Positions 23,470 to 25,365 of a stretch of DNA of 64,000 bases are shown here, piece after piece. This DNA comes from Candidatus Latescibacterota bacterium (GTDB lineage Bacteria > Latescibacterota > UBA2968): contig OZ244028.1 of NCBI GenBank assembly GCA_965214925.1, positions 3,592,205 to 3,656,204 of the forward strand, given 5' to 3'. The translations under genes were made by a program, and so were the position numbers. The notes below the pieces were generated by a model, which had not been told where the DNA came from, ran no database searches, and saw only the letters and a program-made list of their open reading frames with translations. How positions within the stretch are numbered: the first letter of the stretch is position 1; each line of letters starts with the position of its first letter.

Positions 23470-25365
23470 ATGAACCCACAAGTATCCATTCCCAAGACTC
23501 AGATCGCTTCGTTTTGTCAAGCTCGAGGAATCAAGCGGCTTGCCATCTTCGGTTCTGCACTGCGTTCCGATTTCGGGCCGGACAGCGATATCGACGTGCT
23601 CGTCGAATTTGAGCACGGCCACACGCCCGGATTCTTGGGGCTCGCCGACATATCGGCCGACGACCTTGAAGGTATGCTGGAAGATGACTCCGATGTTGCC
23701 GATATCGCAGGGGCAACTGGAGGGACATCTGAAAATGTACAGCGAGAGCTCGCATTGCTTAACCACGCCATCGCAGAGTTAGAACAAGTTGAAGACGACT
23801 CCAAAGCACAAGTACTTGTTGAACAACTTACTGAGATATTCAACAATCACGCGAACGAAAAAGTGATTGTGTTCACCCAGTTTCGTGAGACTCAGCGCTA
23901 TCTTGAGGAAAAACTCAGAGAGCGAGGTTGGGGTGTCAGTCTTTTCCATGGGCAATTGAACCCCAAAGAAAAGGATCGCGCTGTGGAGCGTTTTCGCGAT
24001 GGCACCGGCCCGCAAGGCCCGCAAGTACTCATCAGCACAGAGGCGGGCGGGGAAGGGCGAAACTTGCAGTTCTGTCATCTGCTGGTCAACTATGACTTGC
24101 CTTGGAACCCGATGAAAGTCGAGCAACGCATCGGCAGAATCGACCGCATCGGGCAGAACCACCCAATTAGCATCTTCAATTTTGGGGTCAAGGATACCAT
24201 TGAGGATCGTGTACTCGAGGTATTGGAGAATCGTATCAGATTGTTCGAAGATACTGTGGGCGGCCTCGACCCAATTCTCGGCGATGTCGAGAGCGATAGT
24301 AAGAAAATCATGCGCGTCGCTGAAGATAAACGAGAGGCAGCTATCGCCAAATTAGGAAAGCGCGTGGAGGAAGATATACGCAACGCCAGGGAAGCAGGGG
24401 AACTGCTTGACGACTTCATTATGGACACAAAGTCGTACCGAAAAGAAATAGTCGAGCGTATCTTAGGGCAACCCTCGCCTGTTAACAATGACGACTTTGA
24501 GCAGTTTATTGGACAGAGCCTCGCCGATGTACGCACATACATCAAACAAACCGGAGATATGTACGAGTTGACTTTCCATGGTGACTTTTTCGATACCCAT
24601 CAGCGGCATCTCTTTCCCAGGGGACGGAAAATGAGGGCGGTGTTCCGTCCAGACAGCCGGTCCGACGCGGAGGATGTCGAATTTATGGCCTTCGGCCACA
24701 AAATCGTCAATGTCATTGTCGAACAAATTCTCAACGAGGAATATGAAGGAGTGACCGGCACCCGTCGCATTGCTGCGGACAGCGACCTATCTCCCACAGC
24801 CGGGTGGCTTTTCACCTACCAGTTCACCACGTCTGGTGCGCGTCCCATCGAAAAGGTCATGCCGGTTTTCGTGAGCGATAGTGGCGAGATTGATTTGCAG
24901 ACAGGACACCATCTTTTGCGGCGTGCTTTCCGGTTTGACAGCACAGAGACAGAAATCAATCGGGATGAGATTCCCAACAATCTTAACGAGAGTTATTCTC
25001 GGGCAGATGGGTTCGCTAACGCGGAGAGGGAGAGAATCCAGCGGAAGGCACAACAGGAGGCCACAGAGAGGGCTGACCGGGAAGTCTCCAGGATCGAGAA
25101 GTTATTCGACTATAAAGAACGTGGAGCTAGCGATAAGGTGAAAGCTGCTCGAACCACGCTGAATTGTCTTCGAGAAAGTGGCGATGAGTCGCAGCGTCAG
25201 ATTTTGCCTGTCTGGGAAGCCAATTTACGACGGGCCGAGGAATTATCCGCCAAATTGGCCGAAGATCGCTGTCGTCAGATTGCTGAGGTGGAGAAATATC
25301 GTCACCCACAAGTTGATTGGGCACTGAAGTCACTCGGCCGTATTGAGGTGGTAGTTCGCAAATAG
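23470..25365 (+). CDS. Chimeric ORF: truncated minimal nucleotidyltransferase N-terminus fused to the C-terminal half of a RapA/HepA-like SNF2 helicase; no DEXH ATPase N-domain
   Basis: [23 protein letters not shown] (NTase) then VIVFTQF...[44 protein letters not shown] (helicase C motifs IV-VI). No Walker A/B anywhere in the ORF. Confidence 0.6.
   Translation: [631 protein letters not shown]

Follow-up and report, generated by a model that had tools for sequence, protein, structure and literature searches.

We analyzed a 64,000-nucleotide (nt) stretch of the genome of Candidatus Latescibacterota bacterium (GTDB lineage Bacteria; Latescibacterota; UBA2968), corresponding to positions 3,592,205 to 3,656,204 of the forward strand of contig OZ244028.1 in assembly GCA_965214925.1 and referred to below as the window. 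Within it, an open reading frame (ORF) of 631 amino acids (aa) at 23470..25365 on the plus strand joins the first ~60–70 residues of a minimal nucleotidyltransferase (MNT) resembling the antitoxin MntA directly to the C-terminal 565 residues of a RapA/DrmD-like SNF2 helicase. The ORF, which starts with ATG, was read from the sequence and its translation and is present as an earlier note on this DNA had described it. With a probability of roughly 85%, we regard it as an in-frame fusion remnant that arose by deletion or illegitimate recombination in a rearrangement hot spot rich in toxin-antitoxin genes. It is most likely an ordinary gene remnant and not a new kind of protein, and its product most likely has no function.

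Two truncated parents joined in frame

The helicase portion of the ORF consists of RecA lobe 2, with motifs IV–VI, and a RapA-like tail; lobe 1 is missing. Helicase_C (PF00271) was matched over its complete length at aa 117–228 (23818..24153, plus strand; E = 1e-24, 87.3 bits against a cut-off of 23.5), and the SNF2 motifs IV–VI were read from the translation at aa 185–229 (nt 24022–24156). Motifs I, Ia, II (DExH) and III of lobe 1 were absent, and none of the Pfam models SNF2-rel_dom, DEAD and ResIII matched the ORF. The tail scored 206.9 bits with the NCBIfam model of DrmD (NF038317, positions 444–1005 of 1021) and 142.1 bits with that of RapA (NF003426, positions 475–928 of 959), short of the respective cut-offs of 610 and 576. 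The PADLOC models gave 199.7 bits for BrxHI (positions 438–882 of 933) and 170.5 bits for DrmD. These scores lie far above chance, and it is only the C-terminal halves of the BrxHI, DrmD and RapA models that align. Pfam, NCBIfam and the translation thus confirm the architecture proposed in the earlier note, namely a minimal nucleotidyltransferase (NTase) head of ~70 aa followed by helicase-C motifs IV–VI and a RapA-like tail. Its statement that an ATPase N-domain is lacking and that the protein is no active translocase was likewise borne out: because lobe 1 with motifs I–III is missing, the predicted product cannot have ATPase or translocase activity.

The head is equally incomplete. It is 65–81% identical to stand-alone MNT proteins of ~100 aa and begins with the same N-terminus as they do (MNPQVSIPK). 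The catalytic motif hG[GS]x9-13Dh[DE] (GS...DxD) is kept and matches the invariant columns of a 12-sequence alignment, and all residues that are invariant in the MNT family up to aa 59 are retained. NTP_transf_2 was matched by Pfam at aa 14–59 (E = 1.2e-8), covering only positions 7–47 of the 93 in the profile, and the score of the head with the NCBIfam MntA equivalog was 25.7, against a cut-off of 60. The complete pol-beta-type NTase fold of ~100 aa is not present, since only positions 1–69 of the 101 in the family profile are covered. The earlier note had described an NTase without its last beta-strand; the truncation is real, and it extends further than that, removing the last 30–40 residues (~30–40% of the domain), with both the R-x-V-D-L strand and the C-terminal helix gone. 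With about one-third of the NTase fold lost, the product is probably not a working nucleotidyltransferase.

We located the join with two profiles, one built from the ~100-aa stand-alone MNT homologues and the other from full-length homologues of the helicase (93 sequences). Alignment of the MNT profile extended over aa 1–70 (positions 1–69 of 101), its confidence dropping after aa 60, and the helicase profile aligned with aa 62–629 (positions 517–1080 of 1082; 939 bits). At the DNA level, 79% identity to the MNT genes of two loci (L085 and L086) spans 23468–23645 and stops there. Because the profile alignments overlap at aa 62–70 and the DNA similarity to MNT genes ends at 23645, the crossover lies at nt ~23646–23679 (codons 60–70), slightly upstream of the interval 23680–23830 in which the earlier note had placed the junction. 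The plus strand can accordingly be divided into the 5′ part of an MntA-like MNT gene (codons 1–59, 23470..23646), supported by Pfam, the MNT profile and the DNA identity; a crossover zone (codons 60–70, 23647..23679), delimited by the overlapping profile alignments and the family alignment; and the 3′ half of the helicase gene (23653..25365), which encodes the acidic linker, RecA lobe 2, the RapA-like C-terminal region and the stop codon, and corresponds to residues ~517–1082 of the full-length protein. Within the crossover zone, a patch of nine residues, SADDLEGML (codons 62–70), fits the MNT family (ELDLSxML) as well as the helicase's acidic linker (SxDDLEDRL). Similarity of the two parents at a join is typical of illegitimate recombination at microhomology, and the patch suggests that this join may have been mediated in the same way.

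The start signals come from the MNT side. A Shine-Dalgarno-like GAGGA, read from the sequence at 23456..23460 (plus strand), lies 9 nt 5′ of the ATG, and this ribosome-binding sequence belongs to the imported MNT gene. A promoter-like TTGACA-17-AAAAAT at 23443–23471 was the single match of a scan; it overlaps the start codon and was not used as evidence of expression.

The relatives of the head are toxin-antitoxin genes. A full-length homologue of the head has PDB 1WOT as its nearest solved structure. The head shares the GS...DxD motif with the MNTs of MntA-HepT (type VII) systems and differs from them in being truncated and in having no HepT partner in the window. In the two contigs with head homologues that we examined, an overlapping HepT-like gene directly follows each MNT gene. 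The HepT-like genes beside the closest MNT homologues have decayed while the MNT genes are intact, with a frameshift in L087 (3290–3634) and, in L085 (3272–3457), an internal deletion through which the RX4H region is lost. A tblastn search of the 64-kb window with two HepT sequences found no HepT remnant, either next to the head or elsewhere. No second MNT gene that could have been the source of the head was found in the window or in the two syntenic loci described below. In the 84 loci searched, no MNT gene adjoins the helicase either; the one exception was a weak match of 20 aa downstream of it in L011.

The intact helicase in syntenic relatives and the search for further fusions

As one of two possibilities, the earlier note had suggested an NTase gene joined by deletion to the 3′ portion of a rapA-like gene, and a check of related genomes for the full gene at this position. 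The comparison of gene order supported this possibility. Two loci, L001 on a 6.03-Mb contig and L002 on a 5.28-Mb contig, share the order FAD-oxidase, SDR, full-length SNF2 helicase (1087 and 1096 aa, respectively) and DAGK/YegS. The window shows the same order, with FAD-oxidase at 19053..20981, SDR at 22529..23365, the chimera, and DAGK at 25917..26969. Synteny is anchored upstream by the resident SDR gene (plus strand; adh_short), at whose 3′ end the rearranged segment has its left edge, and downstream by the DAGK/YegS-like lipid kinase gene (plus strand; DAGK_cat and YegS_C). Among the 84 fetched loci searched, this context was common to L001 and L002 only.

The helicase part of the ORF is 73% identical to aa 549–1084 of the L001 protein (P0002, 1087 aa) and 71% identical to aa 540–1096 of the L002 protein (P0003, 1096 aa). 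These values fall inside the range of the flanking proteins, which are 81–84% (FAD-oxidase), 77–80% (SDR) and 69–71% (DAGK) identical between the window and the two loci, and 90% identical for an ABC ATPase compared with L001 only. Both relatives have a full lobe 1, matched by SNF2-rel_dom at aa 171–462 in P0002. Nucleotide similarity between the window and the relatives stops at 23352, within the SDR 3′ end, and restarts at 23756–23795, and the end of the SDR gene is 104 bp upstream of the foreign piece. Because L001 and L002 carry the full-length helicase at the same position in a conserved order, the window gene has lost its N-terminal half: it is the orthologous helicase gene in which ~300 bp of foreign DNA have replaced ~516 N-terminal codons. 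The lost half was not found elsewhere in the 64-kb window, where the only weak match was a different helicase-like ORF at 5557..7905.

The full-length relatives also clarify what kind of helicase was lost. The model of RapA/HepA, the RNA polymerase-associated SNF2 ATPase of E. coli (PDB 6BOG, 4S20, 7M8E), is matched by P0002 and P0003 from end to end (positions 18–928 of 959), and RapA chains are their best matches among solved structures (E ~1e-60). They score 369–376 bits, under the curated cut-off of 576; the label "RapA/HepA-like" used in the earlier note is therefore fair as a likeness, with neither the fragment nor its full-length relatives reaching the RapA equivalog cut-off. Compared with RapA, the window copy is without the N-terminal Tudor-like domain and the ATPase lobe 1 and is therefore incapable of the ATP-driven activity of RapA. 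The similarity of the family to DrmD is about equal to that to RapA. DrmD of DISARM and BrxHI of BREX are the best single-model matches for the fragment, through their C-terminal halves only, but no partner genes of these systems flank the gene in the window or in L001 and L002, and the neighborhood expected of DrmD, with drmA/drmB/drmC or a methyltransferase gene, is absent. The neighbors in the window are instead FAD-oxidase, DUF6036, DUF433/DUF5615, SDR, DAGK and ABC ATPase genes, a mixture of lipid-metabolism genes and toxin-antitoxin modules.

The conserved neighborhood (window 15403–20981; L001 787–6195) includes a fatty acyl reductase-like protein (NAD_binding_4/Sterile) in L001 and L002, along with the FAD-linked oxidase, the SDR and the DAGK/YegS lipid kinase, a combination suggestive of a gene cluster for ether lipids or fatty alcohols. 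The helicase lies within this neighborhood, and a functional link is not obvious. Between the chimera and the DAGK gene lies a pyrimidine-rich intergenic region of 550 bp (25366–25916), with an AT skew down to -0.56, that contains the tandem repeat TGCACTTTGCACTT (two copies) and the 18-nt repeat TTTCGCTTTTCATCCGCG (two copies). A 55-bp segment of it (25504–25558) is 89% identical to sequence upstream of DAGK in L001. An Rfam scan of 20900–27000 gave no match.

As its other possibility, the earlier note had raised a genuine NTase–helicase-C fusion protein, and the protein searches did not bear this out. The protein encoded by the ORF forms a one-member cluster and is a singleton among 5.8 billion clustered proteins and 1.84 billion representatives; neither of these two large databases yielded another protein of this architecture. 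A word-indexed search with the MNT head missed the ORF's own protein and is thus not exhaustive for long proteins, and an exhaustive HMMER search of the 1.84 billion representatives with aa 1–240 was added. Its best 150 matches were all helicase-only. Ten short ones among these were scanned, every one of the three that matched over two stretches among them, and none carries an NTase domain. Of the best 120 matches, 28 were shorter than 980 aa (the ORF and 27 others); all 27 others start within helicase sequence, leaving the ORF as the only one with a foreign N-terminus. A stand-alone family consisting of Helicase_C only was considered and rejected, because the cases on long contigs proved to be split by an insertion sequence (IS), to have their N-terminal half deleted, or to have been called short. 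A narrow literature search found no paper on an MNT–helicase-C fusion; HEPN–SNF2 fusions have been described (PMC3710099), and these contain complete helicases and are not comparable with a join of two truncated parts. These results give no support to a conserved family combining an NTase with Helicase_C.

Rearrangements around the locus and in the helicase family

The sequence immediately upstream of the chimera bears further marks of rearrangement. The SDR 3′ end is duplicated at 23312..23414 (plus strand), as seen from the repeat families D1 and D5 and from the comparison with L001: the final 38 bp of that gene (23312–23349) recur in tandem as 23350–23373 and 23401–23414, the second copy being interrupted by an in-frame insert of 27 nt. 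This duplication is a rearrangement scar directly 5′ of the imported MNT head. L001 has a duplicated SDR 3′ end as well (8442–8552, a 36-aa ORF), located beyond a 1.45-kb insertion with genes for a Glyco_hydro_3 and a Fic-like_C protein. This end of the SDR gene looks like a recurrent site of insertion or rearrangement.

Some 1.3 kb before the start of the first chimera there is another one, also in frame. The first 94 residues of this 200-aa ORF (21535..22137) are 89% identical to the product of a 108-aa gene that follows a DUF6036 nucleotidyltransferase gene in L002, while its aa 132–190 form a complete DUF433 antitoxin domain, and a DUF5615 (PIN-like) gene comes next at 22124..22441. Since L002 is without the DUF433/DUF5615 pair at the corresponding site, it appears that, at 21535–22441, a resident gene received a toxin-antitoxin cassette in its 3′ end. 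The earlier note had described the area as an islet bordered by low GC content; the dips are present, and they are modest (0.43–0.47 versus ~0.52–0.56).

Disruption is not confined to the window. The helicase of L004 (4066–8172) is split by an IS630-like element, that of L005/L010 (a single contig; L005 4689–7494) has lost its N-terminal half beside a DDE_Tnp_1 IS, and that of L068 has an internal deletion. In L003 and L031 the gene was called short, and the coding sequence of the N-terminal half is still present upstream. The RapA/DrmD-like helicase has thus been repeatedly disrupted across genomes, by IS elements or deletions.

The helicase is 54–65% identical across metagenome-assembled genomes of Latescibacterota, Dehalococcoidia and Caldilineaceae, and 30–39% identical in Spongiisociaceae (L006–L047), and its genomic context varies between genomes. 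Its occurrence in different phyla and in different contexts suggests horizontal spread, possibly within sponge-associated communities.

Origin, age and alternative readings

We propose the following course of events. The ancestor would have carried a full-length gene for a RapA/DrmD-like SNF2 helicase of ~1090 aa, with SDR on one side and DAGK on the other. A type VII toxin-antitoxin cassette (MNT-HepT) would then have arrived 3′ of the SDR gene, at the spot that has repeatedly been rearranged. A subsequent deletion, or one illegitimate recombination that used the SDR 3′ end as its anchor and accounted for everything, would have removed the stretch from MNT codon ~60–70 through helicase codon ~517, and with it the remaining MNT codons, the presumed gene for the HepT toxin, the promoter region of the helicase, its Tudor-like N-domain and RecA lobe 1. 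The join would have formed in a short D-L-x-x-x-L patch encoded by both parents and been in frame by chance; the open frame is unremarkable in itself, because one in three random deletions is in frame. The resulting 631-aa ORF would use the start codon and ribosome-binding site of the MNT gene, and its product, if made, would contain half an NTase fold and SNF2 lobe 2 only, capable of neither ATP hydrolysis nor translocation. In having two truncated parents joined at a short patch of similarity, an intact gene in syntenic relatives and singleton status, the ORF resembles known in-frame fusion pseudogenes made by deletion. It differs from them in being unusually clean, with no secondary decay, and in having a second in-frame chimera 1.3 kb upstream.

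The recombinational route deserves separate mention, as a variant of this explanation and not as a different identity for the ORF. In a single homology-facilitated event, DNA from a related strain carrying an SDR 3′ end and MNT-HepT would have been anchored at the resident SDR 3′ end and joined to the helicase at the microhomology, with replacement of the resident DNA between. The duplicated SDR 3′ end directly upstream of the foreign segment, the crossover patch compatible with both parents and the similar SDR-3′-end duplication bordering the insertion in L001 all fit such an exchange. On the other hand, the donor arrangement (SDR followed by MNT-HepT) was not found in the 84 loci searched, and one anchored exchange would be expected to leave something simpler than two adjacent SDR-end copies and a 27-nt insert. 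We consider the one-step route rather improbable.

Several findings weigh against a functionless remnant. No stop codon or frameshift interrupts the 631 codons, and neither half has decayed. The C-terminal half differs at only 3 of 138 columns conserved in the helicase family (family mean 1.5, maximum 6; P0003 also has 3), and the three changes are swaps between hydrophobic or small residues. Tajima relative-rate tests were mostly non-significant: the unique changes in the window lineage equaled or outnumbered those in the other lineage in 9 of 10 comparisons (39–58 versus 34–43), with only one reaching p = 0.012. Lineage-specific single-nucleotide codon changes gave nonsynonymous-to-synonymous ratios of 6:16 in the window lineage versus 2:22 and 5:25, a difference that is not significant. 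These results show that the window lineage was under purifying selection for most of its history. The intermediate state, with SDR, MNT, HepT and an intact helicase, was not found in any relative, and the nearest relatives, at only ~73% identity, are too distant for the event to be dated. The undecayed state fits a recent truncation and continued purifying selection on the fusion equally well, and since both halves are undecayed, either the event is recent or, less likely, the product has been retained.

A retained protein would be an ATPase-dead RapA-like lobe 2 and C-terminal domain expressed from the MNT start signals. Such a protein, in which the NTase head would serve as a novel N-terminal domain, might have a binding or regulatory role, for example by competing on RNA polymerase or on nucleic acid. 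This reading draws on the intact in-frame ORF with its good GAGGA ribosome-binding site, on a C-terminal half as well conserved at family-invariant columns as in full-length members, on the lack of a significant rate acceleration together with the continued predominance of synonymous changes, and on the completeness of the MNT invariant residues up to aa 59. It has to contend with the fact that the protein is a singleton in both databases searched, that each domain is truncated within its fold (the NTase ends at position 69 of 101, and the SNF2 motor is without lobe 1), that syntenic relatives have the intact gene and that other truncations in the family are plainly driven by IS elements or deletions. 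Moreover, an open frame is expected of one in three random deletions, and no decay is expected after a recent event. We therefore regard a functional retained protein as quite improbable. Its more specific form, in which the chimera with its half-NTase head is expressed and kept as a new regulatory or decoy protein, for example one that competes for the partner bound by the helicase before its loss, strikes us as very improbable; if true, it would be a protein caught at birth from the rearrangement of a toxin-antitoxin cassette.

An assembly or consensus artefact, with separate MNT-HepT and full-length helicase genes in the organism itself, is very unlikely because both flanks of the ~300-bp foreign piece come from the same syntenic locus (SDR on one side, the helicase 3′ half and DAGK on the other): the genome is metagenome-derived (a 4.70-Mb contig) and represented by a single sequence, but a mis-join would have had to insert a short foreign fragment and delete ~1.6 kb within one locus, when it would more plausibly link unrelated regions at a larger scale, and the join lies in a patch similar in both parents, as in real illegitimate recombination, with comparable real disruptions in other genomes.

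The remnant explanation, which we prefer, opens no long-standing question, and its consequences are of a practical and evolutionary kind. An automatic pipeline would label the ORF a helicase or a nucleotidyltransferase, and the truncated remnant can be neither. The locus provides a clean example, datable in principle, of how toxin-antitoxin cassettes remodel neighboring genes, with two in-frame chimeras less than 2 kb apart and adjoining a duplicated gene end. If the fusion is expressed, it would offer a small case study of the birth of a new gene. For the family as a whole, the finding adds to the evidence that a horizontally spread RapA/DrmD-like helicase has been repeatedly inactivated.

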